DNA of 64,000 nt from an uncultured Alphaproteobacteria bacterium (GTDB lineage Bacteria; Pseudomonadota; Alphaproteobacteria; RF32; CAG-239): the NCBI GenBank assembly GCA_944393725.1, contig CALYBC010000020.1:6103-70102 (forward strand). Reading direction: 5' to 3'. Below the pieces are notes generated by a model. That model was not told the origin of the DNA and ran no database searches. It worked only from the letters and a program-made list of their open reading frames with translations. Below are positions 27,501 to 59,982 of this stretch, piece after piece (positions within the stretch are counted from its first letter, which is position 1; every line of letters starts with the position of its first letter). The position numbers and the translations under genes are program-made.

Positions 27501-28338
27501 AATTATAAGACACTTGTGCAAACGCTAAAGGAAAGCTTTGGCGAATACTAAAGGCATAATCTTGCCTTTTATGCGCTCTCTCAATTAGTGAGGAAGTATT
27601 GCCCGAAGATTTTGTCTGCACTTGCGGGGAAATTTTCTTCATCATTTGTACGGCTTTAAGGCGAGCTTTTAACGCGGCAACGCTTTCCCAAAGTCTGACG
27701 ACGCTGTCGTATGCTTCCAAAGTTTTGCCGTAGGCATATAAAACCTCGTTGTTGCCACCATCGTCACTGGAAGGATAGCCGCATAATTCTCCGTCTCCTT
27801 CGGCACAAGACTTAGCTATTTCGATTTTTGAACTAATTTCATTTTCAACATCTTGTTGCATGATTTTTGATGCTATATATATCGCGTATATATTGTTTAT
27901 ATAGAATAAATCGCGCTGCTTCATCACGGCATTTTTATGAGCTATACGGTCATTTTTGTAGGTTAGTAGTATCTCTTTCATTTTTTGGGCCATCTGGCGA
28001 ACTCTGATATCTTCTATATCGTAACCACAGTAGCCTGATTTGCTTTGACCGGGAAGACCGTCTACCTCTAGTATGGCTCCGCTTTTTATGTTGTTAAAGG
28101 TGGTTGTTGCGGCTGATTGCATGTTACTGATATCTGCTTTTCCTTGCAAAATTATTTGCTGGCTTTGATTTATGGTGCTTTGTAGATTTCCGGCTACCTG
28201 CGTTACTTCTTCAGGAATATCTAGTGTAATAGATGTGGGAAGAGCGTGATATGCAAAATCCCACGGCATTTGTGCATAAACACCGCTCGGAGCAAGGGAG
28301 ATAAATAAAATTAAAAAATATCCAACCAGCTTTTTCAT
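24505..28338 (-). CDS. 1277-aa secreted, largely alpha-helical/coiled-coil protein, function unknown (in the virB5/virB6 slot)
   Basis: Signal peptide MKKLVGYFLILFISLAPSGVYAQ. Long heptad-like Q/E/K/A/S-rich stretches. The SFPLAFAQV motif is shared with the 386-aa protein (SYPLAFASI). One C-x7-C loop (CAEGDGELC) and several further Cys in the C-terminal ~350 aa. Confidence 0.75.
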   Translation of the reverse strand: MKKLVGYFLILFISLAPSGVYAQMPWDFAYHALPTSITLDIPEEVTQVAGNLQSTINQSQQIILQGKADISNMQSAATTTFNNIKSGAILEVDGLPGQSKSGYCGYDIEDIRVRQMAQKMKEILLTYKNDRIAHKNAVMKQRDLFYINNIYAIYIASKIMQQDVENEISSKIEIAKSCAEGDGELCGYPSSDDGGNNEVLYAYGKTLEAYDSVVRLWESVAALKARLKAVQMMKKISPQVQTKSSGNTSSLIERAHKRQDYAFSIRQSFPLAFAQVSYNSVSGSLSDIEAAAVMQNDESIRLVKQTVEFVSPAEADNEHPLVAAEDKLAALDSLSSAETDVTTAMNAHNMIKQIKEYRKTAEELIKMQDDYNESLQRLKSSEQCAIKYLSHYFSNPVTVWSGVSLGENVNRHDLRKGISAWAIDAYETAKAAETTTVEAEDVAQISLDSEELEALSDDPDMQKSEEAGQNIDVSINKSQQETSQDEGRKSDMMSWQIGAEAAKMLAQEPKKWGNPNNNKMIWTDTKSFYGQYLKRKYENIKEYLKQYTKNDVLAIVVSRLQGKNQDISDTKYQQNLRNIQKEAAAKILQNQQDSSAALSQYSGSMKSSLDSLEKQREELIAKMDDVNGKISSASDEVADMRSVAQDNALQDLDSTVNAKVVYPDVDSTVIPADNEKIIGVDALSEVAQSNISANTNDSRIKTLNNSISSNKKILSKYETELASLDDKIAEAKLAMQESAANSMDKKADAADKIKADVATAATASSEDYAKDVKKNLRAILKEKAEDNPAIDVVFTMLSAETAANRSLNALYKQVDIIVDESYNRIMAMGDSLYLPSSHSKIVAIHNEMISKLKALTLAYSLSGVVEINNVAVYAKLLATDSGTESEGFFVGAAPKARDMKAPYAIPDYSLPPVREVFHFDSTDFGGIKPTGKGLEKRSITASEFLNYGGEVPQIWQDMLKQNAFIESDFNLKEALDIGCYNEAFSRGGIMPCVVDGYSEVLDINTSGNYRARKDLAKGSLPRCILVKVKNGKLYHSMYDSKVDLGLNTSGVEKPGCEYSELGMILEADKKNNLKIRKRLYNTYSDMLANEDSTKLTDAKKNKISLGNHASISRNQIGDFLRHVENEKLQKENLEEYQQRYEKDMEDLVASLEEYGFSPTEDFDLRNESDYNLAVNKLKDIEKQKISSAQAVISATDTTDNEPVKEKIGDLNTLIYVMEQDKNYVMKVSSVTADIDDINSEIKKAEADSAAVDKYENSLKAQEDDYNDPTEPYCANYW

Positions 28339-29714: not shown

Positions 29715-30254
29715 TCACTTTAACACTTCACAATCTTCAACATATTCATATCGACCACCGGATAACGCACGAAAAGATGAGTAAGTATCCTCCGGTAACT
29801 TGTCCAGCTCATCTAATGCATCAAGCATTACAATACCTGCCTCAAAAGAGTTAATGATATTCAGACGACGAGAGATGTCCGCCATCCTTTGGACAATTTC
29901 TTTTTCAAGAATGGCTATTTCGTTGGAAACATCACCTGATGAAGAGGTATCAGTCTTTTCGGCTTCTATGTACGCGGATATCTTTAATGACTGTGCATAT
30001 AAATTGGAAACATAATTGGTCAACACATCGTATTTATTTTGGGTCGCCGTGGTTGCTTGGCCGCGTCCTGGCTTAACCAATCTGGCAATTAAACAGCGAT
30101 AGTAACTGTTATCTTCAATATCAGAATCGCCAACCGGAGATAACCATAGTAACTCGGGATCTCCCTTAACCTGAGATTTGGCATAAGATAATGTCGAACA
30201 GCACATAATCAGAGCCAATATAATAACCGTAATGTTAAAAAACTTACCTAACAT
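29715..30254 (-). CDS. 179-aa secreted protein, small member of duplicated module copy 2
   Basis: Signal peptide ILALIMCCSTLSYAKS. NYVSNLYAQSLKISAYIEAEK ... RRLNIINSFEAGIVML parallels DYVGEYIYKSVKSLVSSGEYE ... SSINLINVNNILSVL of 31398..31961. Confidence 0.65.
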   Translation of the reverse strand: MLGKFFNITVIILALIMCCSTLSYAKSQVKGDPELLWLSPVGDSDIEDNSYYRCLIARLVKPGRGQATTATQNKYDVLTNYVSNLYAQSLKISAYIEAEKTDTSSSGDVSNEIAILEKEIVQRMADISRRLNIINSFEAGIVMLDALDELDKLPEDTYSSFRALSGGRYEYVEDCEVLK

Positions 30255-31380
30255 TTGCTTTCTCCAATATTTGTGCCGGTTGCAATGTTTTTTGCTGGCT
30301 GACGGCAGGGGTTAAGACCAACCCTTCGGACGTAATCTTAGCTCTGTTGGCTCCGGTGTCTGTTCCTTTATAGTTGCTTAATTGCTGTTGAATGCTCATA
30401 GAGCTTGTTGCCTCGACGGTGGTTTTAGGCGTGGATTTGTTCTCTGCCGCCGCTTTCATGACATCTGTCAATGAAACCGATGATGATTCCTGCTCAATAC
30501 TTTCAAATTGTGTGGGAACCGCTATTGATTGAGTTTTTGTTGCGTCTTGAGCTAAAACTGCCGCCGATGTGATTGCTTCGGCTTTGCCTGCTATAGCCGG
30601 CTGTTCTGAACTGATTGTGGGAGAAGCAGTTATAATTTCTGTAGGAGAAATTGTTGCTGGCGAAACGGTCGCTTGCGGAATAGTGCTTACCCTCTCTACT
30701 CTTTGAGCCGGCATAAATGTCGCCTGATTATCATTGTTTGTCACTTGCGAGGCTTTTATTGTGGCGGTTATCGGCGTAACAGCTGTCGGCTCGGCTTTTT
30801 CATTTTGTGTGTTTGTGTCAGTAATTTCGGTTTCGTTACTGGCTGCAGCGTTATCCGTATTTTCTTCCGGCACGGCTTCTTGGGTATTGTCATCCGTACC
30901 GGTTGCTTCTTTGATGGTGCCTGCGACCTCTTTGCCCGTATCTATTATATCCTCGACTTCTGATTTGTAGTTACGGTACATATCTCTTATCTCGTTTCCT
31001 TCCGCAATTGCTTCATCTGCCATAGCCTTATACTCCAAGGCTTTTGCATTCAAGCGATTGTATTTTTCCAGCAATTCTTCTTTGCGTTCTTTGGCGGTTT
31101 CTATGCGATCTTGAACTTTTTCGGCTTTTTCTTTGACGACTTCGGCTTTTTCTTTGTATTTTTCCAGACGGCCGAGATTTATGTTGTCAAGGCTCAAACT
31201 TACTTTAGTCGTAAGAATTTTACGCGCTATTCCCGAATATTTCTTTTGAACCAGCCCTGCCTGTTTGAGATAACTGTTACTCTGGGTAAGAACATTAGAC
31301 AGCAAATCGGTTCCTGCAAAAGCTCTTTGCCCTTGCAGCAAAAACATAAAAGCTATCCATGTTGCTATCCAAACTCTCAT
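30244..31380 (-). CDS. 378-aa secreted coiled-coil protein, large member of duplicated module copy 2
   Basis: Signal peptide ending RAFAGT. KEKAEKVQDRIETAKERKEELLEKYNRLNAKALEYKAMADEAIAEG parallels KEKLQEKLDKIEEYKKKAEEYKAMALSYKEEAEE ... EYKAMAEEGIE of 31971..33131. T/S/A/Q-rich C-terminal half. Confidence 0.7.
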   Translation of the reverse strand: MRVWIATWIAFMFLLQGQRAFAGTDLLSNVLTQSNSYLKQAGLVQKKYSGIARKILTTKVSLSLDNINLGRLEKYKEKAEVVKEKAEKVQDRIETAKERKEELLEKYNRLNAKALEYKAMADEAIAEGNEIRDMYRNYKSEVEDIIDTGKEVAGTIKEATGTDDNTQEAVPEENTDNAAASNETEITDTNTQNEKAEPTAVTPITATIKASQVTNNDNQATFMPAQRVERVSTIPQATVSPATISPTEIITASPTISSEQPAIAGKAEAITSAAVLAQDATKTQSIAVPTQFESIEQESSSVSLTDVMKAAAENKSTPKTTVEATSSMSIQQQLSNYKGTDTGANRAKITSEGLVLTPAVSQQKTLQPAQILEKANVR

Positions 31381-31970: not shown

Positions 31971-33131
31971 CTATTCTTCCTCTTCCTGAGGCAGATCAGC
32001 ATAAATATATGAATTATATGATTGTATACCGAGTTGCCGTGCCCATAAACGGCGTAGAGAGTTGTATCGAGTACCAATGATGCGGTTCATCTCCTTGGCG
32101 TATGCCCAAGCAGAATCTACGGTCTCCATATTGGATGTTGTTACGGGGTCCACCATATTGTTCTTAAAAGTTAAGCTTTCATTATATATGGCAAAAGCTT
32201 CCAAAAAAGAAGCCGTAACATATTCAACATAGCCGTTCATAAAATCTGTTCTTACAGTTGACTTTTCTTGCATATCCGCACCGTCTGAAACTTCGGAATT
32301 TAGCTTTTGGTTAATTTCGGTCAGACACTCGTCAAACTTGCCTTCTTCTGCCGATTCCTCATAATTTAAGTCGCAATATACAGAGATACTATCGGGAACG
32401 ATAAGTACTTTATCGGGAGTACTCCCGCCTTTTAGGGCGTCTATTTCCAGTATGCTGGCAAACGCTAACGGATAACTTGTTTTAATGCGGTGAGGAGTTA
32501 AAAATGAACTCTGAAAAGTTGAACGGGTGGGGGTAGGAGTTGCTTCTTGGGCATTATTTCCGGTGCCAAGCAAATCTCCATCTATTGCAAAATCGCTTTG
32601 TGCGGAATCTACAGCTCCGTTTACCTGATTTTCAATATTGGAGCTTACACCGGCTGCTATTTCATCGGCGTTTTCAACAGTGTCAACAACCGTGTTGCTT
32701 ACATCTTTTACCGTTTCAATCCCTTCTTCGGCCATCGCTTTATATTCTTTGGCTGTGTCTATAGTATCCTCGGCCAACCCCTTGTAGTATGCAACCCGCT
32801 CTTCGGCTTCTTCTTTATATGATAAGGCCATGGCTTTGTATTCTTCGGCTTTTTTCTTGTATTCTTCAATTTTATCTAGCTTTTCTTGTAGCTTTTCTTT
32901 TTGATTACTGATAAATTCAGAAACACTTTTCTTTGCCGTTCCTATGGCTGCCATAGTTTTTTGATATTGCGTAACTTGCGTGATACTTTCTTTGACATTG
33001 TTAATGGTATTGCTGACCTCGGTTGCAGCCTGAATAGTGCCGGGAATATCCGCAGTAGGAATAATGGCGTAAGATGAGCGCGAAAAAAATATGCCAGCTA
33101 ATATCGCAAGTGTCTTTATGTGCCTGTTCAT
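31971..33131 (-). CDS. 386-aa secreted helical protein, large member of duplicated module copy 1; possibly VirB5-like
   Basis: Signal peptide ending SSYA. The mature N-terminus IIPTADIPGTIQAATEVSNTINNVKESITQVTQYQ resembles the IPV-D...Q-rich start of VirB5/TraC-type minor pilins. It is the first gene after virB4. Confidence 0.6.
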   Translation of the reverse strand: MNRHIKTLAILAGIFFSRSSYAIIPTADIPGTIQAATEVSNTINNVKESITQVTQYQKTMAAIGTAKKSVSEFISNQKEKLQEKLDKIEEYKKKAEEYKAMALSYKEEAEERVAYYKGLAEDTIDTAKEYKAMAEEGIETVKDVSNTVVDTVENADEIAAGVSSNIENQVNGAVDSAQSDFAIDGDLLGTGNNAQEATPTPTRSTFQSSFLTPHRIKTSYPLAFASILEIDALKGGSTPDKVLIVPDSISVYCDLNYEESAEEGKFDECLTEINQKLNSEVSDGADMQEKSTVRTDFMNGYVEYVTASFLEAFAIYNESLTFKNNMVDPVTTSNMETVDSAWAYAKEMNRIIGTRYNSLRRLWARQLGIQSYNSYIYADLPQEEEE

Positions 33132-33209: not shown

Positions 33210-35639
33210 CTAAAGATTTAAATATTTTGTAACAAAGTTGTCTTCGCCATATTCTTTTATCAATTCTTCTACCAACAAAACATTTTTTCTTCCGGAATTA
33301 TATATTTTGAGATAGGGTCCTAATCCGCTTAAATCGACATCTAAAATCACGGATTCACCTGTCGCCGGTCTGGACAAAAGAATTGCATACGGAAAATCAC
33401 GGTAGCTTTTACCAAAAATAAAGTCTGTTTCTGCCTCGGTTAAGTTCCAGTTCAAATAATCTTCCGGCATGGCTTGAGGGTTACGGAAAAAGATTACGGT
33501 TTGGCATTGGCCGCGAATGACCTCGCCGACACCGAGCTTATCAATAATATTGGGTTGTTGAAACGCACATAAATATGCTTGGCGTTTTTTACGACCTTCT
33601 TGCAAACCGATGGCAAAATAGTCTCTAAACATCGGGTGTTTTAACATTGGCGCCGTTTCATCAATCATAATCAGTGACGGTACGCCGGTGTCACCGGTTT
33701 CGGACTGTATGCGGTGCATAATATAGCTAATTACGGCCGGAGCCAAAGTCTCGTCTTCAAATATGTGGGTAAAGTCAAATGCCATAAAACGTTTGCTCTT
33801 TAAGTCCAAACTATCGTCTTGAGAATTGAAAATATTACCATACTGATCGGGATTTACCCATTTAAATAGTTCGCGACGCATATTGCCGGTCGGAGAAAAG
33901 CAACTCTTGTAAAGATTGCTCATAATTCTTTCCTCGGGCCGCAAATAATCAAAAGCCGTGGTTACCGCACGAGCAATTTCTTTTTCGGAAACAGCATCAT
34001 CAACAAGCGTGATGGCTCGCATCCAACGACGCAGAAAAGCTCGGTTGTTGGGGGTGTTAGCACAAGCAAACGGATTCAAAGAAACATTTTTTTCGTCGCC
34101 CTCAAAGCCTACATAGGCTCCTTTGATCGCACGTGTAAATATTTCGGCACCGCGGTGACGGTCAAAGAAAAAAACTTTCAAATCGGCATGACGCATGGCT
34201 TGTCCGGCCAAGAAAGTAAGCAATGTCGTCTTACCTTGACCGGTCGGTCCAATAATGCAACAGTGGGCAACCGCAGAATCTTCTGAGGATACATGGAACT
34301 GAAATCGATATGCCGAACCGGAGGTCGTACGAAATACGGTAATCGCTCCCGGACCCCAGTCTGATTTAGAAAAACCTTCCGACGGTTTATCAAAGGAAAC
34401 TGCCGTTGCGACAACTCTTGATAGGTAACGATAGGTTCTGGGCAAAGTTTCATATGTGGGAAACTGGTTGAAGAATGTCGCTTGAGCAACCCACCCTTCT
34501 CTGACGGGGGTTACACTGAATAAACGGCATATTCGCTGGACTTCACTTTCGGCATTATCTATTTCTTCTTTGCTTTCACCTCTTAACATTATTGCCATGG
34601 CATATTCGGTTAAAGCTTGGTGGTCACTGTCGCTTTCTTCAATCGCCGAAAGAACTTCGCTGTATTGGTCAATAACATCACCGGAAAAACTGGTCATCGC
34701 GGCCATTCTTTGCTGTTGTAATAATAACGCACGGGCTTGCGGCTTAAATATGGGGCGAATGTTGTGCAACAAGACCAATTCACAGTCTATTGCCAACAAA
34801 GAAGACACCATTGCTTCGTCCATGTAATCGCCGGATGAGCGTATTCCCATAACGACTTCATACAATTCTTTGTCGCCGGAGAAAAATTTGATAATACCCT
34901 CTTCTCCGGTAAAGTGAATATGATCTGCCGTTAACAGCTGATTAAGTTGCGCCCCGACGGCACCTCTGACTTTGGGCTTGGGCCTTGATACCGGTGAACA
35001 CAGCTTTGAATAGACAATAAACGGACTATCATCAGCCGAACTTCCCTCTTCCTCAATTAAAGGCTTGACGCCATAATCATTTAGAGTTGCAACCAATGAC
35101 TGCGAGGCATAGTTTAAGTCTTTAAGATTTTCATCTCGGTCGGCGACCGAAAGAACTATGTAGTGCGTGTTGAAGAATACTCGATTAATGTTCTCTTGCC
35201 AAACCTCCGATATCTGCTCCAGCAACGGATTATTAAAGTTGCTGACATTTTCTTCCAGAGGTACTTTTTCTCTTATAGTGATTACACGGCAGGTAACCTG
35301 TAAGTCGGACATACCGTCTATCCATGACTTTCTGGCTTCCAGCATAGAGGCTACTTTTTCTTCCGTGGCAAAGGCCAAATCGGCTCCGGTAACCCTAAAC
35401 ACACGAGCCAGAGCACCATTATAGCAGCGAATCGTCATACCGTCGGAAAGAAGCTTTTCAAACGGCATAAAATCCGAAACGCGAGACTCTCTCGGATGGG
35501 GTAAGACTAAGTGGCCGAACTTGGTTGCCCAAAAGCCGGCAAATGCTGCTGCCGAAATAAATCCTATAACGGCAACCAATATTTCAAAACTTGACAGACC
35601 TTCAACGAAGATCGAAAAAAAATCATAATCAGGGTGCAA
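33210..35639 (-). CDS. virB4: VirB4/TrbE/CagE-family T4SS ATPase
   Basis: 809 aa with N-terminal TM, Walker A GPTGQGKTT, and Walker B PSLIMIDETAP. It overlaps virB3 by 11 nt. Confidence 0.93.
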   Translation of the reverse strand: MHPDYDFFSIFVEGLSSFEILVAVIGFISAAAFAGFWATKFGHLVLPHPRESRVSDFMPFEKLLSDGMTIRCYNGALARVFRVTGADLAFATEEKVASMLEARKSWIDGMSDLQVTCRVITIREKVPLEENVSNFNNPLLEQISEVWQENINRVFFNTHYIVLSVADRDENLKDLNYASQSLVATLNDYGVKPLIEEEGSSADDSPFIVYSKLCSPVSRPKPKVRGAVGAQLNQLLTADHIHFTGEEGIIKFFSGDKELYEVVMGIRSSGDYMDEAMVSSLLAIDCELVLLHNIRPIFKPQARALLLQQQRMAAMTSFSGDVIDQYSEVLSAIEESDSDHQALTEYAMAIMLRGESKEEIDNAESEVQRICRLFSVTPVREGWVAQATFFNQFPTYETLPRTYRYLSRVVATAVSFDKPSEGFSKSDWGPGAITVFRTTSGSAYRFQFHVSSEDSAVAHCCIIGPTGQGKTTLLTFLAGQAMRHADLKVFFFDRHRGAEIFTRAIKGAYVGFEGDEKNVSLNPFACANTPNNRAFLRRWMRAITLVDDAVSEKEIARAVTTAFDYLRPEERIMSNLYKSCFSPTGNMRRELFKWVNPDQYGNIFNSQDDSLDLKSKRFMAFDFTHIFEDETLAPAVISYIMHRIQSETGDTGVPSLIMIDETAPMLKHPMFRDYFAIGLQEGRKKRQAYLCAFQQPNIIDKLGVGEVIRGQCQTVIFFRNPQAMPEDYLNWNLTEAETDFIFGKSYRDFPYAILLSRPATGESVILDVDLSGLGPYLKIYNSGRKNVLLVEELIKEYGEDNFVTKYLNL

Positions 35640-35919: not shown

Positions 35920-36013
35920 ATCATTTCTCTTTCAAACTACAGCCGTATTTATGATAAAACATCCGTTATTTTTTCGCAACAACACAAATAATTTTATCCT
36001 ACCATATTTGAAG

Positions 36014-36063
36014 CAAAAAAACGGAAGCATTACATACCTTTGTGGTAGAGCATACTTCCGTTT
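36014..36063 (-). terminator. Candidate intrinsic terminator/attenuator between the pilin-type genes and virB3
   Basis: On the minus strand, AACGGAAGTAT ... ATGCTTCCGTT forms an 11-bp stem with one G-U pair and a 21-nt loop with an inner TACC/GGTA pairing, followed by T7. It lies 24 nt after the stop of the 1853-aa gene. Confidence 0.5.
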
Positions 36064-36086
36064 TATGAATAATGCGTTAACTTGTT

Positions 36087-39000
36087 TTAGCCATACAACT
36101 CTTTTTCAAGTCTTCTGACCTCGGCAACCGATTTATCATAATTGCTTTGTGCGGTGCTTAACTTGTTTCTGGCCTGATTTAACTTGCTTTGGTAATCATC
36201 ATACAAAGCCTTGGCCTCTTTATACTCATCGTAAAGCTGAGCTGCTCGTCTAAGACCGGCCTCATCACCTTCTTGCAGGCTGTTCTTGGCTTGCGTATAT
36301 CTCAATGCCGCATTATCCACTACATTTCTTTGTTGCGACACCAGTCTCTCATATTTATTGATGTCTGATGACGCTTCCTGCATGTCTGCTTGGTATTGGC
36401 GTTGTTTATATTTTTCGGATTCCAAAGCCTTGCGTTGATAATCACTTTCATAACTTTGCAATTCGCTGTTAAGAGCATCATACTCCTGCTTGGCGGCAGC
36501 AGCCTCGCTAGCGGCCAAAGAGTACTGACTTGCCAAACGATCAGCTAGTTGGCAATCGCTTGCACTGCCGCTTTGTTGACAACGCTGCAATGCCTTTTGG
36601 TATTCATTATAAGCGTTGTTGGCAACCGCCTCTTTCTCGTTCTTGTTATATTCGGCCACATCAGTCTTATTTTTTTGCTCGACATAGCTGTTTTTAGAGG
36701 CCTGAGCTACCGCATTGGGGTTGGTTTCGCTTTCATACTGATTAACCAGTATCTGATTTGCGACATCCTCACTTGAGGTTAAGCGGCTATCACCGGTTTG
36801 ATTGACATCTTCTTGAGTATAAGAGTCAAGTCTGTCGGCGGCGTCATTAGCTTCGGAGTATGCACTGTTATAATCGCGTTGGGCTTGTTCTTTTTGCTTA
36901 GACAAGTCATTATACTCGCTTGTCTTTTCTTCATACTCATCTTTTTTGTCGCTCATTTCGGCAAGCTTGCTTTCGTACTCGCGTCTTAATTGGTTAATTT
37001 CAGACTGGCTGGCTCCGCTTGATACCGCCTGATTGTAGGCGTCTTGTGCGGCTTGAGCATCTTTCATAGCTTGATTGTACTCATCTTTGGCCGTGTTCAT
37101 ATCATTTTGGGCACTATCAATCTTGCCATTAACTTCATCAAGTGTCGCTTTGGCGTTTTCAGATTTTTCTTTAGCGTTTTCCAAATCGCGTTGAGCCTGA
37201 TTTTGGTTGGCAGTAAGAGCATTTTGATATGCGTCTTCGGCCTTGTTCTTAGCTGCGTCATAATCGTTTTTGGTCTGCTCAAGTTGATCTTTTTTATTGT
37301 TGAGAGCGGCATTGGCTGCAGACGAAGCCTCTCTGGCGGTTGTACATAGCGAACTTGTGGGATCGTTTGCACAGGCTCTGTCAGCACTCTGCTGTTTACT
37401 TGCAGCCTCTTGTTCAAGTTGTTTTACCTGTTGTTCTTGACTGTTGACCGCAGAATAGAGGGCGTCGGCTTCGGACATGGCTTGCTCGTACTGACTGTTG
37501 GCAATTTCAGCCTCGTGTTCAAGTCTTTGAGCTTCTTGCTCTTGCTCATAAGCAAGTTGTTGCTCCATCTCTTTTAATTTTTGGTCCTCGGCGTTGCTTA
37601 CCAGCTTATTGGCCGTATCCTCAGAGGTCTCATAGCGACTGTCGCCGGTGGCATTCTCTTTCTCATTTACATAAGAGGTTAAAGTATTGGCGGCATCAAG
37701 AGCCTTTTGACGAGCACTAGCACACTCGGCACTACCGGGGTTCTTGTCGCAAATGCTGTCTGCATCCTTAGCTGCTTTTTCGTAATCATCTTCAGCCTTG
37801 GAAATGTTGCTTTCTAACGCTTCATTATAAGCGTGTTCCATTGATCTCTTGGCATCATCATACTCATCTTTGGTCTTGCTTAATTGATCTTCTTTGGCCT
37901 GCAATGAATCTTCAACTGCTTGCAAGCTGTTGCGTGAAGCCTGACACAAAGGCGAAGTATCATCATCACCGTTACAATTTTGCTCAACTGCCTTTTCGGC
38001 ACTGGCTTTTTGATTTTGCAACTGCTTAACTTCTTGTTCTTGCTTTTGCATATCGTTATACATATTGCTTACTTGTTCGCTTTTAGCTCGATAATCCTCG
38101 TTTTTGCCGGCATTGCTTTCACGATAAGCCTGATCGGCAGCGGCCTGAGCCTGAGCACGACCTTGCTGTACTTGTTGTTCCTTCTTTTCGGCTCTTACAT
38201 CATTTATACTCTTGCCTCCTCCAAGAATCGGGGCACTTTCTACGGCATTGGTAACGACACCTACCTGCATCAAACCATCTTGAGCAAAGCTGTTTAGTTG
38301 TGAAGATTTATCACTGATGTCTGACGCTAAATCATTAGCAAAAGTCAAGCCATTGCTTGCTCCTACTATCTGTTCCGTAGTAACACTGTTGCCATATTCG
38401 TCGACAATTACATTACCAGCATAATCGGTTAGTTCGACTTCTTCTTTAGCAACGGCTCCGGTTTCTGCATCCCACTTTTGTCCTTTAATAGCGGCGTCAA
38501 GAGCGTTGGTTGCTTCGCCGGAATTTCTTTTGTCTTGGAGTTGCTGTTGCTGCTCAACACTCTTGCCCATATCTTGGACATTGTTAGATATGGTAGAAAT
38601 AGCATTGGTAACAGAGCCGACTGCTCCGGTAGTTGTGGAAACCGCAGTATTAACATTGCTCAAAATAATGCCGGTATTGGTCACAATCTCGGTTAAGCTG
38701 GCGCCTTTCATATTTTGTGCAGCTTGTTTAATGTTGGCAACAGTATCTTTTACCGTATCAACTCGGGCTTTCATATCCTGAGCCACTGCAACCGTAGTCT
38801 TAACCGTATCAGCAGCTTTTTTGGCCGTTGAAATAACATCTTTAACACAACTGGTAAAGTTGCCCCAACCAGAGCCGCTGGTTCCTTGGCAGAATTTACG
38901 AGCTTCCGCTTCTTGACCACCGCCAATATCACCGCCGGAATAGTATGCTTCCATGCGTTTGGTATAATCGGCGTCTATTGCCTCGCTAAAATCGTACAAA

Positions 39001-41648
39001 CCTTTGGTTGTCGTTGCAATATCACCATAAACATAGTAGCTGTCATTAAAGGCATTGGCTAAACGACTTCTGTCATCACCGTCAGTACCTGCAGTCTTGG
39101 CACCATCTTTCCAATATCCGATATAATATCCGTCAGCACCACCGTTGCCGACCATATATTCAATCAACCGCCCCATGTTAGCTACAAGAAACAAGCCCAT
39201 GGCGATATTGGCAAACCATTTCCAACTCAGCTTATTGAATATGGCCATCCAAGCAAAGCCGATTAAACCAAAACCGGCAAATATGTATACTAAGGGCTTG
39301 AGGCCAACGACAATTCGAGCTGCACGACGGGTTATCTTCTCTAAGACATCGTCACCGGTATCGTAACTGAAATCCCCTTGATATCCGCCCAAACTTGATA
39401 CTGCCGGACGCTGTTTTTTATCAATATTAACTATGCCAAAGCTATTGGGAGATTCCGTACCTTCTTTTAGGGCTCGCTCGGCCGCGGCGACCTCGTTCCC
39501 GTAGCGCATTCTCATTTCGCATTCGCGGTCGCCATTGCAAGTTGTATCTATATATTTGGCGAGTTCTTCATCTCTGGCTCTGAGGGCTTCCATACATTCT
39601 TGGCTGCTGGAACCGTATTGACGACAAGTTGCGGCGGCTTGTTCAGAGGCTTGATCGTAAGCTTCACTATAGGCATCGGATAATATGGATTGATTTGCCG
39701 CAGCTTCTTTTTCTTCGGCGGCTTTAAGGGCTTCTTGAGCCGCTTTACAAGTCTCGGATTCCGGATCGTCGGCACAGGCAAGCTCTGCGTTAGTTTTGGC
39801 GGCTTCGAGCTCCAGTCTGGCTTTTTCATAATTGAGGGAATTAAGCTCTTTTTGAGCCGCGGCACAATCCTCTGATTTCGCATTGCCGCCGGCACAAGCC
39901 TCTTGCATTTTTTGATTGGCTTCGTCTATTTCGGCTTGCACCTGACTTTGTTGTTGCTGGTTTACACCTAAAGATTGTTCTTGGCTCTGTTGATTAGCCG
40001 CATCTGAGTTGTCTTTAGCACTTTCATATGCAGCATCAGCATCTTCTTGAGCTTGTTTGGCTGCATCTCTTTCTTCTACGGCAGCAGCTACTTTATCTTT
40101 TGCAGCTTGACAAGCTTCTGATGTGGGATCTCCACAAGCGGCAGCCATTTGATCAAGAGCGTCTTGATATGCTTTTTCGGCATTTTTAACTCTATTATCA
40201 GCTGCATTTTTAGCATTGCTTGCCGCAGATAATTCATTATCGGCATCGACTTTGTTTTTATTGGCTTTTGCCGCCGCACAATTAGGATCGCTCTCATCAC
40301 AATTTGCCAAAGCATTTTCTGCCGCTTGCTTTTGTTCATTGTAGGAATCGCTTCTCTGTTTGTCGGAATCGGCTTTGCTTTGAGCGGAGTTGTAAGCTGC
40401 TTCGGCCTCGGAATAAGCGGCAGTAGCTTGTTTACATTCTTTACTGTTGGGTTTAAGACAGGCGGCATCAACACGTGCTTCGGCATCAGCCAAAGCAGTC
40501 TCGGCTGCCTTAGCCGCGGCAGCTGAGGCTTCAGCGTCTTTTGCGGCCTGATCGGCACCGGCAGCAACCGCCGCATAATCATCTACTGCCGTGCTAATAT
40601 CTTCTTTGTAGCCTTGGTCTCTTTGTTCTTTTGCGGTCTTGTCCGCCGCATCCTTTGCCGAATCAGAAATCATCTGCTCCTGCTGCTTACGGAGGTTTTC
40701 ATCGTGTTCCATTTCTTGGTAGGTACTGTTTGCCTTGGCATTAGCTAATTCTTGCTGGGCTTTTTCGCATTTGGACGGATTATACTTTGGGCTGCTTTTA
40801 GAGCAGTAGTCATCAACCTTCCCTTGCGCCTTGTCTACTTTTTGCTGAGCTTTTTCTTCGGCTTTTTCTTGTTTTTTCTGGGTCTTTGCATCAGCCTTAT
40901 CTAACTCGGATTGAGCTTTTTGCTCGGCAGCTAATGCCTCGGCTTCTTGTTGCTTAGATAACTCTAAATCTCTTTGTTTTTCATTTAATGTATTGTTAGC
41001 TATGTTAACATTTGCTGCGGCAGTTATACACTCCATTGAATTGGGATCTTTTGCACAAAGGTTTTGCATATCCTCTCTGGCTTGTTGGGCGTTCTGTTGA
41101 GCCTGTTGCAATTCATTATTGGCTTTGTTTACGCTTTCGCTAGCTTGCTCACGATATGATACAGCATCGCCATAATTAGATCTTGCCTGATCACTCTTCG
41201 CTCCAGCTTTGTCGGCGGCTTTGTCGGCGAGGGTATCTTTGCCGGTACCGTTTGTTTGTTCTGCGGTTTTGCTATTGTTTTCATTTATTTTTGCTTCACA
41301 CTCGGTACTTACTTTTTTCTGTGCATCACTAACTTTTTGAGCCTGATCTGATTGAACCTGTTCATATTTTTTTTGAGCCACATCTTTTTGTGCCAATGCA
41401 GTCTGATAACCAGAGCAATAGGTTAATTCTATACCATCACATGAAGCTTGAGCTTTTGAAACTGCGGAATTGGCTTTGGATAATTCTTCTTGAGCTTTTT
41501 TTAGCTCGGCAGATTGTGTTTTCTGCGCCTTTTTATAGTCATCTTGTGCTTGCTTACACGCATCTGCAGCAAAAGAGGTATTGACAGAAAAAGCCATTAC
41601 CATGCCGATAAGCATTATTACCTTACTTATTTTAGATAATTTTATCAT
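36087..41648 (-). CDS. 1853-aa protein: signal peptide, ~770-aa coiled-coil arm, VirB2/TrbC-like two-helix hairpin, ~1000-aa coiled-coil arm
   Basis: Signal peptide IMLIGMVMAFSVNTSFA. Central VGLKPLVYIFAGFGLIGFAWMAIFNKLSWKWFANIAMGLFLVANMGRLIEYMVG (WKW at about 39216-39224) is colinear with the cores of the 113-aa and 229-aa VirB2-like ORFs. The flanks are A/E/K/Q/D-rich, with about 16 C-x5-14-C loops (e.g. CLKPNSKEC, CGDPTSEAC, CADDPESETC, CDKNPGSAEC, CANDPTSSLC). Confidence 0.8.
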   Translation of the reverse strand: MIKLSKISKVIMLIGMVMAFSVNTSFAADACKQAQDDYKKAQKTQSAELKKAQEELSKANSAVSKAQASCDGIELTYCSGYQTALAQKDVAQKKYEQVQSDQAQKVSDAQKKVSTECEAKINENNSKTAEQTNGTGKDTLADKAADKAGAKSDQARSNYGDAVSYREQASESVNKANNELQQAQQNAQQAREDMQNLCAKDPNSMECITAAANVNIANNTLNEKQRDLELSKQQEAEALAAEQKAQSELDKADAKTQKKQEKAEEKAQQKVDKAQGKVDDYCSKSSPKYNPSKCEKAQQELANAKANSTYQEMEHDENLRKQQEQMISDSAKDAADKTAKEQRDQGYKEDISTAVDDYAAVAAGADQAAKDAEASAAAAKAAETALADAEARVDAACLKPNSKECKQATAAYSEAEAAYNSAQSKADSDKQRSDSYNEQKQAAENALANCDESDPNCAAAKANKNKVDADNELSAASNAKNAADNRVKNAEKAYQDALDQMAAACGDPTSEACQAAKDKVAAAVEERDAAKQAQEDADAAYESAKDNSDAANQQSQEQSLGVNQQQQSQVQAEIDEANQKMQEACAGGNAKSEDCAAAQKELNSLNYEKARLELEAAKTNAELACADDPESETCKAAQEALKAAEEKEAAANQSILSDAYSEAYDQASEQAAATCRQYGSSSQECMEALRARDEELAKYIDTTCNGDRECEMRMRYGNEVAAAERALKEGTESPNSFGIVNIDKKQRPAVSSLGGYQGDFSYDTGDDVLEKITRRAARIVVGLKPLVYIFAGFGLIGFAWMAIFNKLSWKWFANIAMGLFLVANMGRLIEYMVGNGGADGYYIGYWKDGAKTAGTDGDDRSRLANAFNDSYYVYGDIATTTKGLYDFSEAIDADYTKRMEAYYSGGDIGGGQEAEARKFCQGTSGSGWGNFTSCVKDVISTAKKAADTVKTTVAVAQDMKARVDTVKDTVANIKQAAQNMKGASLTEIVTNTGIILSNVNTAVSTTTGAVGSVTNAISTISNNVQDMGKSVEQQQQLQDKRNSGEATNALDAAIKGQKWDAETGAVAKEEVELTDYAGNVIVDEYGNSVTTEQIVGASNGLTFANDLASDISDKSSQLNSFAQDGLMQVGVVTNAVESAPILGGGKSINDVRAEKKEQQVQQGRAQAQAAADQAYRESNAGKNEDYRAKSEQVSNMYNDMQKQEQEVKQLQNQKASAEKAVEQNCNGDDDTSPLCQASRNSLQAVEDSLQAKEDQLSKTKDEYDDAKRSMEHAYNEALESNISKAEDDYEKAAKDADSICDKNPGSAECASARQKALDAANTLTSYVNEKENATGDSRYETSEDTANKLVSNAEDQKLKEMEQQLAYEQEQEAQRLEHEAEIANSQYEQAMSEADALYSAVNSQEQQVKQLEQEAASKQQSADRACANDPTSSLCTTAREASSAANAALNNKKDQLEQTKNDYDAAKNKAEDAYQNALTANQNQAQRDLENAKEKSENAKATLDEVNGKIDSAQNDMNTAKDEYNQAMKDAQAAQDAYNQAVSSGASQSEINQLRREYESKLAEMSDKKDEYEEKTSEYNDLSKQKEQAQRDYNSAYSEANDAADRLDSYTQEDVNQTGDSRLTSSEDVANQILVNQYESETNPNAVAQASKNSYVEQKNKTDVAEYNKNEKEAVANNAYNEYQKALQRCQQSGSASDCQLADRLASQYSLAASEAAAAKQEYDALNSELQSYESDYQRKALESEKYKQRQYQADMQEASSDINKYERLVSQQRNVVDNAALRYTQAKNSLQEGDEAGLRRAAQLYDEYKEAKALYDDYQSKLNQARNKLSTAQSNYDKSVAEVRRLEKELYG

Positions 41649-41688: not shown

Positions 41689-42378
41689 TTATTCCGTCGT
41701 CATCTCTTCCAAACCTGCCTCTTCGGCTATTTGGGATTCCGATGATGATCCACCATAGGGGACACTAATCCACCCTCCGCCGGAAACACTTTCGGTATAG
41801 TTATCATTAAATTCTTGTGTACTCATCGATGTAGGAGCGGTTATGGTATTGGTAATGAGTTTGTCATCAAAATCAGGACAGCCGGTTATCATTACCACAA
41901 TTTCTCCGGCAGAGGCGATTACTACCAGCGAGATGATTATCGCGCCCAACCACTTCCAGTTTAGGTTGCCGAAAAAGCCTCCGACAGCCACTGCGATAAT
42001 ACCAAAACCGGCTACAACATATATCAAATCGCGCAGTCTCTTGAAAATTAAAACACCCGTGTTGACAAGCTGAGAAAATGCTCCGCCGCTGGTACCACAA
42101 AAGGTGGCATTTTGTTCGGCTCCCGCTCCTTGGCCTTTTACCACAACATCTGTTTTTTCTTCTTGGGTTTTAGTTTCTTCTTGAGCCGGAGTTTCTTCTT
42201 TAGGTTGAGAATTACTGTTTTCTTCTGGAGCATTCATACAAACCCAATTAATACACACCTGCCCCTCGTCACAACCGCATAAATCCGATGACATCTGTGC
42301 ATACACATTTCCAGTGCCATAGATGCAAACAAACAAGGCTATAAGAAGCACTTTTAATATGTCTTTTATCTTATACAT
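41689..42378 (-). CDS. 229-aa VirB2/TrbC-domain paralog with a Cys-rich, acidic N-terminal extension
   Basis: Signal peptide, then LCGCDEGQVCINWVCM, then an E/T/Q-rich linker, then LIYVVAGFGIIAVAVGGFFGNLNWKWLGAIIISLVVIASAGEIVVMITG. Confidence 0.75.
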   Translation of the reverse strand: MYKIKDILKVLLIALFVCIYGTGNVYAQMSSDLCGCDEGQVCINWVCMNAPEENSNSQPKEETPAQEETKTQEEKTDVVVKGQGAGAEQNATFCGTSGGAFSQLVNTGVLIFKRLRDLIYVVAGFGIIAVAVGGFFGNLNWKWLGAIIISLVVIASAGEIVVMITGCPDFDDKLITNTITAPTSMSTQEFNDNYTESVSGGGWISVPYGGSSSESQIAEEAGLEEMTTE

Positions 42379-42481
42379 CTTATCCTCCTATTTGCCTTGG
42401 TTCGCTTTATTGACTGAGTTTGTTTTTGTACATCATTACTTGTATAAAAATAAATCCAGCCTGCTTTTGTTTAGGCCTTGA

Positions 42482-42511
42482 GCCCCGAGGCTTTTGCAAA
42501 AGCCTCGGAGC
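42482..42511 (-). promoter_or_regulatory. Perfect 24-nt palindrome (stem-loop) just downstream of virB2
   Basis: CCGAGGCTTTTGCAAAAGCCTCGG at 42485-42508, 17 nt after the virB2 stop. No T-run follows on the coding strand, so a processing/stability hairpin or weak attenuator is more likely than a full terminator. Confidence 0.45.
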
Positions 42512-42525
42512 CCTGACCAAACTCA

Positions 42526-51431: not shown

Positions 51432-52154
51432 ATGATGGGAAAATCTATTCAAAGGATTGCAAAGATGTACTTAAAAAAGAATTGTCTTCTGGCGGCGTTG
51501 TCTGTTGTCGCGTTGGGTGGGTGTAGTAATACCTACACTCTCTGGAGTTTGCCTTGGGAGGATGATGAACCGCAGGTAGAAGAAGTGGTGATATATACTC
51601 AGGAAGGCAACCAGCCCGTGCCGGCTGTTGCACCGACTGAGCAAAAAAACACCAATGACCGTTTTGTGGATTATAGAATGACCGATGCCGATTATAGGGA
51701 ATTCGGAGAGAGAGAGGTCACTGACCAGTATATCTTGGCAAATGGCGTAGGTAGCAATATGGCGGCCGCAATTCCGCCGACAATCGAAGAAGAGGTTACC
51801 GACTATGAGGAAGCCGTAAATGAGGCAATTTCCGATGCGGAAAATGCAAGTTCCGGTAATACCGAATACAACAGCGGCGACGACGCAGTAGAGGATTGGT
51901 TGGCCGAGGAAGGTTCTACTTTGAAGGGATTACTTTCGGATTGGTGCGAGAGATCGGGTTGGAGATTGGTTTGGAATTCCAACAGGAATTATACATTGGC
52001 TGCCGGAGCTATGTTCAGAGGAAGATTTGCCGATGTATCTTCGGCTCTAATTAGGAATTTTGCCAGAGCCAAACCGGCACCCATGGCCACTTTTTATAAA
52101 GGAAACCGCGTCTTAGTGGTTGAAACAAGGGAGGATGAAAATGCTTATAACTAA
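51432..52154 (+). CDS. PilL/TcpQ-like lipoprotein of type IVb pilus systems
   Basis: 240 aa with lipobox VALGGC and an acidic linker. The C-terminal LKGLLSDWCERSGWRLVWNSNRNYTLAAGAMFRGRFADVSSALIRNF ... YKGNRVLVV fits the TcpQ/PilL C-terminal pattern. Sits directly upstream of the secretin. Confidence 0.6.
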   Translation: MMGKSIQRIAKMYLKKNCLLAALSVVALGGCSNTYTLWSLPWEDDEPQVEEVVIYTQEGNQPVPAVAPTEQKNTNDRFVDYRMTDADYREFGEREVTDQYILANGVGSNMAAAIPPTIEEEVTDYEEAVNEAISDAENASSGNTEYNSGDDAVEDWLAEEGSTLKGLLSDWCERSGWRLVWNSNRNYTLAAGAMFRGRFADVSSALIRNFARAKPAPMATFYKGNRVLVVETREDENAYN

Positions 52155-53745: not shown

Positions 53746-53767
53746 CTTCTTTGCAGGAGATAAAAAA

Positions 53768-56417: not shown

Positions 56418-56444
56418 CTTTAATTTAATTGGTTAAGGTGGAAA

Positions 56445-58118: not shown

Positions 58119-58133
58119 TTTGAGGGCGATAAA

Positions 58134-59270: not shown

Positions 59271-59279
59271 GAAGTGATT

Positions 59280-59870: not shown

Positions 59871-59982
59871 AATTGTTTACTTTATTTTAAGCTATTTGTG
59901 TATACACTAAGCGTAAATTTAGTTTTTGGTTGTATAAAAACAAATATGAGTGTAGAATAAATATATTAGGAATACTTAATTT

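Follow-up and report, generated by a model that had tools for sequence, protein, structure and literature searches.

VirB2 pilins are regarded as small, uniform building blocks, and current models of type IV secretion system (T4SS) pilus biogenesis, which draw on structures of the R388, T, and F pili, presuppose subunits of ~7 kDa. In an uncultured Alphaproteobacteria bacterium, an uninterrupted open reading frame (36087..41648, minus strand) among the pilin genes of a T4SS encodes 1853 aa, about 195 kDa. Is the hairpin in the middle of this giant protein a genuine pilin domain, as the original prediction held, and what could such a protein do in a secretion system? We analyzed the window (the whole 64-kb stretch of DNA), in which the relevant features are as follows.

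33210..35639, minus strand: VirB4 ATPase, 809 aa
35629..35919, minus strand: 96-aa protein with two TM helices in the VirB3 position (conserved synteny)
36012..36064, minus strand: intrinsic terminator, stem-loop plus U7, right behind the giant's stop codon (z -6.1)
36090..38201, minus strand: C arm of the giant, residues 1150-1853, helical, A/E/Q/S/K-rich, with 4 Cys loops (Cys loops, relatives)
38202..38468, minus strand: variable linker or insertion, residues 1061-1149 (comparison with the nearest relative)
38469..39140, minus strand: conserved post-hairpin domain, residues 837-1060 (family alignment)
39141..39377, minus strand: VirB2/TrbC pilin domain, residues 758-836 (Pfam, BLASTP, hhalign, profiles)
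39378..41567, minus strand: N arm, residues 28-757, A/E/K/Q-rich, all-helical, with 10 short Cys loops and C31-C117 (AF2, Cys loops)
41568..41648, minus strand: signal peptide of the giant, residues 1-27, MIKLSKISKVIMLIGMVMAFSVNTSFA (hydropathy)
41689..42378, minus strand: mid-sized VirB2 paralog, 229 aa (TrbC 25.6 bits, match to pilins)
42469..42522, minus strand: GC-rich RNA stem-loop without a U-tract, right behind the short pilin gene (z -5.1)
42526..42867, minus strand: canonical short VirB2/TrbC pilin, 113 aa (Pfam TrbC 36.9 bits, above the gathering score of 27.9)

The pilin locus and the pilin domain of the giant

The order short pilin, mid-sized pilin, giant, 96-aa VirB3-like protein, VirB4 is found in the window and in six of the seven operon loci inspected; the exception (L006) lacks a VirB3-like or VirB4 gene downstream of the giant. 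ORF parsing recovers the three-pilin arrangement in most of 80 genome loci. The giant's position upstream of the VirB3-like and VirB4 genes is that of a TrbC/VirB2 family member. The 113-aa protein, the presumed major pilin, is 59 to 78% identical among typical orthologs across species, with one divergent sequence at 30%. Its 229-aa paralog combines a signal peptide, a Cys-rich N-terminal motif, an E/T/K-rich linker, the pilin hairpin, and a tail of ~60 aa. An AGGAGG Shine-Dalgarno sequence lies 6 nt before the ATG of the giant gene, and the terminator behind it, which is kept in other loci, is predicted to close a three-gene pilin transcription unit. The position of the stem-loop after the short pilin gene is also conserved across loci. 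Stem-loop and terminator together lead to the prediction that the short pilin is the major subunit and the giant a minor one.

VirB4 and VirB9 are single in the window, VirB8 has two copies, and VirB6-like and VirB2 proteins have three paralogs each; the VirB5 position is taken by two secreted helical proteins. Large periplasmic additions occur elsewhere in the system: a VirB9-SPOR protein, a VirB10 whose beta-flower repeats span ~1100 aa, and a paralog of 1101 aa. A VirB5 fusion is unsupported, as BLAST of the giant against the other window proteins gives no shared domain.

The pilin domain of the giant comprises an amphipathic helix, TM helix 1 (~783-806), the loop NKLSWKW, and TM helix 2 (~811-833). 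We find that residues 758-835 align with residues 18-99 of the 113-aa pilin (BLASTP; 39% identity over 83 aa, E 2e-18), and that the giant also matches the 229-aa paralog (E 1e-9). The original prediction had aligned the hairpin with both adjacent pilins; this holds (at residues ~783-834), as does the (N/S)WKW loop, which is present in all three proteins. The match is not confined to the two-helix core but covers all of the mature pilin, its N-terminal amphipathic helix included.

Profile searches, which had been proposed as a check on the hairpin, gave a divided result. Pfam TrbC (PF04956) stays below its gathering score, with 17.7 bits for the whole protein and 20.5 bits for the central 370 aa; in 12 of 13 family members, TrbC is likewise the top recurrent but sub-threshold Pfam match. 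A profile of 41 short pilins, on the other hand, matches 49 of 49 giants (E 1e-12 to 6e-19; 6e-17 for that of the window), and hhalign relates short pilins to giants with a probability of 99.4%. Furthermore, the TrbC/VirB2 that NCBI annotates in a canonical operon on a Microvirga plasmid scores 96.8% (E 2.4e-10) against the giant-family profile. NCBIfam has no family matching any of the three pilins, and profile searches of PDB sequences with the giant core and the short-pilin alignment returned no pilin, only coiled-coil noise. A Pfam match to CP12 (E 0.002) was set aside as an artifact of Cys pairs and helix composition.

Like bona fide TrbC/VirB2 members, the giant thus has a signal peptide, a pair of hydrophobic helices with a short basic loop between them, and homology along the full mature pilin; the gap of ~750 aa from signal peptide to pilin domain is atypical of the family. 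These comparisons support a genuine VirB2/TrbC pilin domain lying between two very large helical arms. Because mature family members are small subunits of ~7-10 kDa that polymerize into the T4SS pilus, and the giant has ~195 kDa, we class it among VirB2-domain paralogs and apart from conventional structural pilins.

Arms of the giant and their variation among relatives

The hydropathy of the giant peaks only at residues 2-28 and 778-806 and, more weakly, at 811-833. This Kyte-Doolittle scan, a heuristic rather than a dedicated signal-peptide predictor, bears out the signal peptide and places the predicted cleavage after MIKLSKISKVIMLIGMVMAFSVNTSFA, before AD. The signal peptide motif KLSKISKV is kept in homologs, including those with unrelated N arms. 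Between signal peptide and pilin domain lie ~730 aa, and ~1020 aa follow the pilin domain.

We counted 32 Cys in the giant, in 15 short loops (C-x5-13-C) and the pair C31/C117, which flanks the 70-78 loop symmetrically (39 + 39 residues) and is kept in homologs. The original prediction had counted about 16 short disulfide-type loops; here there are 15 plus one long-range pair. The (D/N)-P-x-S context, said to be nearly universal, is found in only about half of the loops. Similarly, the arms proposed as long coiled coils are A/E/K/Q-rich and predicted to be helical, but a classic heptad coiled coil lacks support: large hydrophobics make up only 13 to 17% of arm residues, and heptad periodicity is not above shuffles in a Fourier test. 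We thus term them helical hairpin arms. AF2 models the N arm as helical throughout (pLDDT 77.7), with helix breaks exactly at the Cys loops; a Foldseek search of the PDB with this model has no match at E <= 1e-3 and yields only generic helical hairpins and bundles. For the central 370 aa, the model from 13 aligned sequences has a pLDDT of 41, unusable for fold search. The C arm contains an internal duplication (1196-1352 resembles 1397-1636), and a tandem-repeat search of the giant gene found no tandem DNA repeats beyond a trivial 2-copy 12-mer.

Between hairpin and C arm lies a conserved domain of ~220 aa (837-1060) that the original prediction had not set apart. It has a Tyr/Trp-rich segment, the Cys loop FCQGTSGSGWxNFTSC, and then long helices, and is found only together with the hairpin in the giant family.

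The signal peptide, the 32 Cys in loops, and the helix breaks of the N-arm model at these loops indicate arms that would be extracytoplasmic, disulfide-stapled helical hairpins. We infer their external topology from the signal peptide, the known topology of VirB2, and the paired cysteines.

The original prediction called for the same fusion in relatives. We detected at least 49 giant genes in species-level gut genomes, encoding 49 distinct proteins (782-2138 aa) of gut Alphaproteobacteria; 103 representative clusters score E <= 1e-30. The same intact architecture recurs in dozens of independent assemblies, which rules out a chimeric assembly. None of the findings named as telling against the pilin fusion emerged, be it a missing profile match, a stop or frameshift, or a generic anchor: the ORF is intact, and the hairpin is far more conserved than expected of a generic anchor. 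In the literature searched on extended or fused VirB2 and on T4SSs of RF32-type gut Alphaproteobacteria, no such protein is described, in agreement with the earlier view that no pilin with appendages of this size was known.

The pilin domain is 97.5% identical to that of the nearest relative, while its flanks are 20 to 60% identical and linker residues 1061-1100 only 20%. It is near-invariant even among giants whose arms do not align, a pattern that points to specific contacts and speaks against a generic anchor. The closest relative has a C arm of 91 to 93% identity and an unrelated cassette in place of the N arm. Across the family, the arms measure 300-880 and 260-1380 aa, and smaller members bear Cys-rich or low-complexity C-terminal modules instead. 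Judged by these alignments, the arms are mosaic, with an N arm that apparently acts as a swappable cassette. The carriers are widespread uncultured members of the human, primate, and ruminant gut microbiota. Searching 72,556 plasmids with the giant core and the short pilin (tblastn) gave no match; this is thus not a known plasmid system.

Possible roles in the secretion system

The giant is probably a variable surface or periplasmic fiber plugged into the secretion machine. We see about an even chance that it is, more specifically, a minor, VirB2-anchored, variable fiber that the T4SS displays, either as an adhesin or as a sheath. It would be a third, hugely enlarged VirB2 paralog of a chromosomal P-type (VirB/Trb-like) T4SS. 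Its N terminus would cross the inner membrane via the signal peptide, and the central pilin domain would insert as the usual two-helix hairpin with the Lys-rich loop in the cytoplasm, so that both arms (~730 and ~700 aa) and the ~220-aa juxta-membrane domain would come to lie in the oxidizing periplasm. There, disulfides between paired cysteines would hold long antiparallel helical hairpins together at their tips. Structures of conjugative pili show the loop turned toward the lumen and both termini exposed to solvent (bioRxiv 10.1101/2024.03.04.583355); the Lys-rich loop of the giant would likewise face the lumen of an assembled pilus. The pilin domain may dock the giant into sites of the 113-aa pilin, at the VirB6/VirB4 assembly platform and/or in the pilus lattice, as a low-abundance minor subunit placed most plausibly at the filament tip or start or scattered along the filament. 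The two arms would then be displayed outside as an exchangeable fibrous module that serves in adhesion or target recognition, or as a sheath.

Co-assembly with the T4SS, and the surface exposure and adhesive role of the arms, are what we infer, and the mosaic, cassette-like variation of the arms lends their exposure indirect support. This variability could also stem from relaxed constraint on low-complexity helices. Display is hard to reconcile with the size of the appendages, as ~190 kDa of folded, disulfide-bonded protein would have to fit a tight VirB2 lattice and the outer-membrane core complex. Moreover, the tip role is not obviously vacant, since a VirB5-position protein is present.

Arm size and disulfide-bonded folding would make export through the T4SS channel difficult, which favors a second reading, an inner-membrane-anchored periplasmic scaffold. 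Its hairpin would then only tether it in the inner membrane beside the T4SS, and the arms would stay periplasmic and never reach the surface. They could, for instance, form a cage or span the cell wall as a spacer, or they could regulate or cap the extraction of pilin. We regard this as possible though doubtful. The same topology evidence (signal peptide and Cys) applies, and the VirB9-SPOR protein, the VirB10 repeats, and the 1101-aa paralog suggest a heavily elaborated periplasmic machine. However, periplasmic scaffolds are usually conserved, whereas the giant arms are cassette-swapped among close relatives and vary several-fold in length. Outstretched helical arms would also be expected to far exceed the periplasmic width, and the near-invariance of the full pilin domain, including its amphipathic N-terminal helix, suggests more than anchoring.

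VirB2/TrbC propilins are trimmed at both ends, and an extreme version of this processing would make the giant a precursor or polyprotein, with arms that are cut off as pro-regions to yield a normal-sized pilin together with one or two further helical proteins, which would be periplasmic or secreted. The motifs conserved on either side of the pilin domain (GYRSxxFNY upstream; YYIGxW and SYYVYGD downstream) could be recognition sites. Against this, an intact short pilin gene is already present two genes upstream, no TraF/LepB-type peptidase gene was recognised in the 64-kb window, and conservation of the ~220-aa domain only with the hairpin suggests one functional polypeptide; we consider a precursor improbable. 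Far less credible still is an incidental likeness to pilins, be it in a generic two-TM anchor, a chimeric assembly, or a pseudogene. The sub-threshold Pfam score would allow it, and hydrophobic hairpins may align spuriously, but the alignment takes in the non-hydrophobic N-terminal helix and the WKW loop, and the family profile, hhalign, and an independently annotated VirB2 all agree. A chimera or pseudogene is further opposed by the many intact genes in independent assemblies, and a pseudogene by the strong ribosome binding site and terminator of the giant gene. This last reading is effectively refuted.

In the boldest reading, the VirB2 domain would be a universal plug-in for very large exchangeable fiber cassettes in the T4SS pilus lattice or tip, giving a "feathered" or sheathed pilus. 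We think this unlikely. If true, it would reveal a way of displaying surface proteins that has so far gone unnoticed, and common gut Alphaproteobacteria of humans and animals would possess a new class of organelle for recognizing hosts or prey. It would also imply an outer-membrane conduit passing subunits about 15 times the normal size.

Conserved VirB2 paralogs with 600 to 2,000 extra, presumably extracytoplasmic residues on both termini challenge the picture of the small pilin. Either T4SSs handle vastly larger subunits, with consequences for channel gating and pilus architecture, or a new envelope structure has recruited the pilin fold as its docking module. Cassette exchange, by which the arms evolve, is the hallmark of interfaces with hosts, phages, or competitors. 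The giants may also be natural pilins that tolerate large fusions at both termini, which is relevant to engineering surface display on conjugative pili.

Comparison with known systems

In canonical VirB2/TrbC proteins (PF04956; VirB2 of A. tumefaciens, TrwL of R388, and the 117-aa VirB2 of Microvirga plasmid pMVF16-3), the entire mature pilin is homologous to the domain of the giant. Both share the amphipathic helix, two hydrophobic helices, a basic loop, a Sec signal peptide, and the place before VirB3-VirB4. Canonical precursors have ~100-130 aa, in contrast to 1853 aa, and the nearest plasmid system has a single VirB2 instead of three paralogs. The full-length giant is an implausible candidate for cyclization or for the tight lattice packing of T or RP4 pili.

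The modeled N-arm hairpins locally match the receptor-binding (R) domain of colicins E2, E3, and E9 (Foldseek; probability 1.0, TMt ~0.8, rmsd 2.6 Å, ~115 columns), a ~100-Å antiparallel helical hairpin whose tip binds BtuB. At E 0.3-0.9, this is generic fold similarity only, and colicin hairpins, unlike those predicted for the arms, are neither disulfide-stapled nor tandemly arrayed.

Another parallel is H. pylori CagY, a Cys-regular helical sheath (PMC2581425). The CagY middle repeat region and the giant arms are both large, charged, alpha-helical regions with regular Cys, borne on a T4SS subunit via TM segments; the K/E-rich region of CagY, whose variation arises through recombination, has been proposed as a sheath around the T4SS filament. 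Yet CagY is a VirB10 homolog, and the arms of the giant sit on VirB2 and have no sequence similarity to CagY; Pfam finds no TrbI/VirB10 domain in the giant, as a CagY-type sheath would have. CagY changes by repeat gain and loss, the giant by cassette replacement without tandem DNA repeats.

Rickettsiales rvh systems are likewise chromosomal alphaproteobacterial T4SSs with duplicated VirB8 and several VirB6 and VirB2. In Anaplasma, hypervariable VirB2 paralogs, which vary at both ends, occur with surface-exposed giant VirB6 extensions (PMC3556328, PMC7648143). Both systems have a membrane subunit with an enormous extension (in rvh, the exposed VirB6-3/VirB6-4 repeats), but in Rickettsiales it is on VirB6 and the VirB2 paralogs are small, whereas here it is on VirB2. 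The rvh type also has duplicated VirB4, VirB8, and VirB9 and no VirB5, in contrast to the one VirB4, one VirB9, and VirB5-position proteins of the window. Unlike Rickettsiales, the carriers of giants are gut-associated and apparently free-living.

In Bartonella Trw, variant surface-exposed VirB2/TrwL copies determine adhesion (PMC2883598). A Trw-like, adhesion-only T4SS would combine amplified, fast-evolving surface pilus components with the absence of a coupling protein; the locus has three VirB2 paralogs with mosaic arms, and the 64-kb window contains no VirD4 or relaxase domain. Like Trw, with its amplified variant TrwL (VirB2) and TrwJ (VirB5), it combines tandem VirB2 paralogs in one T4SS locus, surface components that would diversify faster than the machine, a proposed role in adhesion, and no coupling protein with the system (here, none in the window). 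The Bartonella TrwL variants are of normal size and differ by point substitutions; the giants diversify by huge modular arms.

The pilin domain and its operon

The window contains a long minus-strand type IV secretion system (T4SS) operon. As transcribed, it encodes a short pilin, a mid-sized pilin, a giant protein, a 96-aa protein with two transmembrane segments in the VirB3 position, VirB4, several secreted proteins that match no family, two VirB8 paralogs, VirB9-SPOR, a 1101-aa protein, VirB10, and VirB11.

Features of the operon and its surroundings
42526-42867, minus: TrbC/VirB2 short pilin, 113 aa (Pfam TrbC 36.9 bits, above the gathering score of 27.9)
42469-42522, minus: perfect GC-rich RNA stem-loop without a U-tract, between the two smaller pilin genes, directly after the short-pilin stop codon
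41689-42378, minus: VirB2-like mid-sized pilin, 229 aa (Pfam TrbC 25.6 bits)
36087-41648, minus: giant ORF, 1853 aa (Pfam TrbC 17.7 bits at residues 778-823)
41568-41648, minus: signal peptide of the giant, residues 1-27, motif KLSKISKV
36012-36080 region, minus: intrinsic terminator, stem plus U7, after the giant gene (z -6.1)
31971-33131 and 30244-31380, minus: paralogous secreted helical proteins, VirB5 position
24505-28338, minus: 1277-aa secreted protein with a signal peptide only and no Pfam match, between the VirB5-position genes and VirB8
21108-22682, minus: VirB9/CagX homolog with a C-terminal SPOR (peptidoglycan-binding) domain
17795-21100, minus: repeat paralog of VirB10, 1101 aa
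13452-17798, minus: VirB10/TrbI, 1448 aa
3122-5452, 1807-3111 and 47478-49520, minus: polytopic VirB6/TrbL paralogs of 776, 434 and 680 aa (776 versus 680, E 1e-70)
49686-60585, plus: type IVb pilus cluster (TcpQ, secretin, PilO-like, T2SSE ATPase, T2SSF platform, two bundlin/PilS-type pilins)

The giant ORF is uninterrupted and is preceded by an AGGAGG ribosome-binding site. Its residues 758-835 align with residues 18-99 of the short pilin at 39% identity (BLASTP, E 2e-18), a span that covers the entire mature pilin with both its amphipathic N-terminal helix and its N/S-W-K-W loop; the mid-sized paralog also matches (E 1e-9). The original prediction, which aligned an embedded VirB2/TrbC hairpin with both adjacent pilins, is borne out. 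By hydropathy, only three hydrophobic stretches occur in the giant: the two pilin helices and an N-terminal one that agrees with the predicted signal peptide. Pfam TrbC falls short of its gathering score here and, although the commonest match in 12 of 13 giant cores, stays below threshold every time. In contrast, a short-pilin-only HMM matches all 49 distinct giants taken from related genomes, at profile positions ~27-100 (E 1e-12 to 6e-19, Z = 1e6), and alignments of these giants and 41 distinct short pilins match each other with an hhalign probability of 99.4% (E 5e-22). An independently annotated TrbC/VirB2 (NCBI) from the canonical VirB2-VirB3-VirB4 operon of Microvirga pMVF16-3 matches both the short pilin (E 2e-19) and the giant-family profile (96.8%, E 2.4e-10). 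Smaller relatives (213-630 aa; hairpin 50-65% identical) carry precomputed PF04956 matches, and NCBI calls one of them “TrbC/VirB2 family protein.” By these alignments, the pilin resemblance is more than a hydrophobic coincidence.

Elsewhere in the operon, the TrbI domain of VirB10 is preceded by ~1100 aa of beta-flower (PF21785/PF21784) and DUF3659 repeats, which makes VirB10 a core-complex subunit of unusual elaboration; its 1101-aa neighbor is a paralog of this stretch of repeats (E 2e-61) and contains RHS repeats. The 1277-aa secreted protein has counterparts of 1283-1720 aa in related loci. One VirB6/TrbL paralog is split off by housekeeping genes. This paralog expansion (VirB6, VirB8, and VirB5-position proteins) recalls the rvh systems of Rickettsiales. 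On its flanks the operon has housekeeping genes, those for a ROK kinase, LuxS, PNP, shikimate kinase, and a XerC-like recombinase, and the type IVb pilus cluster, which also adjoins the T4SS in three related loci (L001, L004, and L007).

A family of giant pilin-domain proteins

The fusion recurs in relatives. A set of 5.8 billion proteins contains 13 full-length homologs, unnamed or called “hypothetical protein,” from Alphaproteobacteria metagenome-assembled genomes. A scan of species-representative genomes yielded 80 loci, nearly all from uncultured gut Alphaproteobacteria (e.g., “Proteobacteria bacterium CAG:495”) of humans (including Hadza), ruminants, deer, horse, and rabbit. Most encode the triad of short pilin (~113 aa), mid-sized pilin (129-300 aa), and giant (782-2138 aa), as parsed from ORFs, and in no giant is the N arm shorter than 300 aa or the C arm shorter than 260 aa. 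Gene-by-gene inspection shows the triad followed by the 96-aa protein and VirB4 as far out as homolog P0012; the most distant locus (L006, encoding P0013) has the triad, but no VirB3-like or VirB4 gene after it. When 1.84 billion representatives were searched exhaustively by HMMER with the core profile, 580 proteins matched at E ≤ 1e-3, of which 103 reached E ≤ 1e-30; many are 700-2100 aa long and have an internal hairpin. This distribution is that of a family, not an artefact. The mid-sized paralog and many 200-690-aa relatives (P0023-P0054) are VirB2 domains with other extensions: Cys-rich “C..GG.W.....C” repeats, PEEETPDE repeats, or S/T/N/G-rich linkers. The clade thus holds a whole spectrum of “decorated” pilins, with the giant as its extreme.

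Searching known plasmids with the core and the short pilin identified no family member. The nearest plasmid T4SS, that of pMVF16-3 (VirB4 39% identical), encodes MobA and VirD4 along with just one VirB2, of 117 aa. Since this one VirB2 is normal, the two extended paralogs represent an insertion between virB2 and virB3 that is specific to the gut lineage. The 64-kb window contains no recognizable domain of a relaxase or of the coupling protein VirD4, and the gut T4SS may be non-conjugative, serving adhesion only or effector translocation.

The intergenic region after the short pilin folds stably (MFE -47.9 kcal/mol, z -5.1), and a stem-loop of different sequence occupies the same position in all 14 other loci checked that have a short pilin. 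This suggests a conserved attenuator or mRNA-stabilizing element through which the balance between major and extended pilins is set. By analogy with other pilin operons, the short pilin is probably the one of the three made in the largest amount. The motif UUAACGCAUUAUUCAUAAAA, near-verbatim in many related loci, precedes the giant's terminator, and a stem followed by a U-run occurs after roughly 10 of 15 giants checked, again with differing sequences. Because both signals recur across loci, the three pilin genes form their own unit.

Conserved core and variable arms

The N arm (residues 28-757) is 21% Ala and 31% charged, with Pro and Gly almost absent outside Cys loops. The giant has 32 cysteines, and 15 pairs form C-x5-13-C loops; such short loops had been foreseen, but their (D/N)-P-x-S context, thought nearly constant, holds in only about half. 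C31 and C117 lie exactly 39 residues to each side of the 70-78 loop, a four-Cys arrangement also found in P0002 and P0010. The AF2 model of the N arm (mean pLDDT 77.7, from an alignment of three sequences) is all-helical and breaks each helix at a Cys loop. Together with the symmetric C31/C117 pair, this supports a model in which antiparallel helical hairpins follow one another in tandem, each turn being stapled by a disulfide. Foldseek returned no significant global match for the model; locally, it resembles the colicin E2/E3/E9 receptor-binding hairpin. The original prediction of two long arms stands as regards length and predicted helicity. Heptad periodicity is not significant in either arm, so we do not claim a canonical coiled coil.

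After the pilin domain (residues 758-836) comes a conserved domain (837-1060) with an aromatic-rich segment, the loop FCQGTSGSGWxNFTSC, and long helices; it is seen only together with the hairpin, and AF2 models it poorly (pLDDT 41). A variable insertion (1061-1149) precedes the C arm (1150-1853), which has four Cys loops and is partly duplicated within itself (1196-1352 with 1397-1636, E 2e-15). Since the C arm is weakly similar to the N arm, both are built from the same kind of module.

Compared with its closest relative (L008/L009/P0001), the giant is 97.5% identical in the hairpin and 91-93% in the C arm, but only 42-62% in segment 821-940 and 20% in 1061-1100, and the N arm is wholly non-homologous. 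The window's N-arm type recurs in otherwise more distant giants (43% identity in P0002, 30% in P0010). Only a ~390-aa core aligns family-wide. The leader motif M.KLSKISKV... is kept across P0001-P0012 even where N arms are unrelated, which hints at a recombination boundary right after the leader or a leader with a specific function. The short pilin is strongly conserved between species, being 59-78% identical to 10 of 11 sampled orthologs, with one divergent at 30%. These comparisons describe a putative invariant docking domain, mosaic cassette-like arms, and a constant major subunit, a pattern that would be expected of a surface-exposed variable component.

Possible roles and known systems

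VirB2 is inserted in the inner membrane so that its two termini face the periplasm. Once VirB2 is assembled into a pilus, its basic loop borders the lumen and its termini are both exposed to solvent (bioRxiv 10.1101/2024.03.04.583355). Applied to the giant, this topology would place both arms outside the cytoplasm, and the paired cysteines are consistent with that. The pilin domain would then dock the giant into the T4SS assembly platform or the pilus as a minor subunit, with the arms displayed as a variable adhesive or sheathing fiber, a proposal that we favor over the others and give about an even chance of being right. Its main difficulty is steric: ~190 kDa of folded arms would have to pass the outer-membrane complex. 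Because such passage is hard, two other readings stay alive, namely an inner-membrane or periplasmic scaffold, which we consider rather unlikely, and a cleaved precursor, which seems improbable. An artefact or a generic membrane anchor is effectively excluded.

The VirB2 fold, the T4SS operon, and helical hairpins are known; the giant's architecture and its family-wide conservation are new. Literature searches, the four profile libraries, PDB sequences, and plasmid annotation yielded no account of a VirB2 with appendages of this kind, and database names of family members read “hypothetical protein.” The giant is clearly of interest for the structural biology of T4SSs and for the biology of the gut microbiome. 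For a displayed fiber, functional precedents exist on other subunits: CagY, with its Cys-regular helical sheath (PMC2581425), and VirB6-4, whose extensions are surface-exposed (PMC7648143). The pattern of an invariant core with variable arms also finds parallels in Bartonella Trw, with its variant copies of TrwL and TrwJ (PMC2883598), and in the VirB2 and VirB6 diversity of Anaplasma (PMC3556328, PMC7648143).
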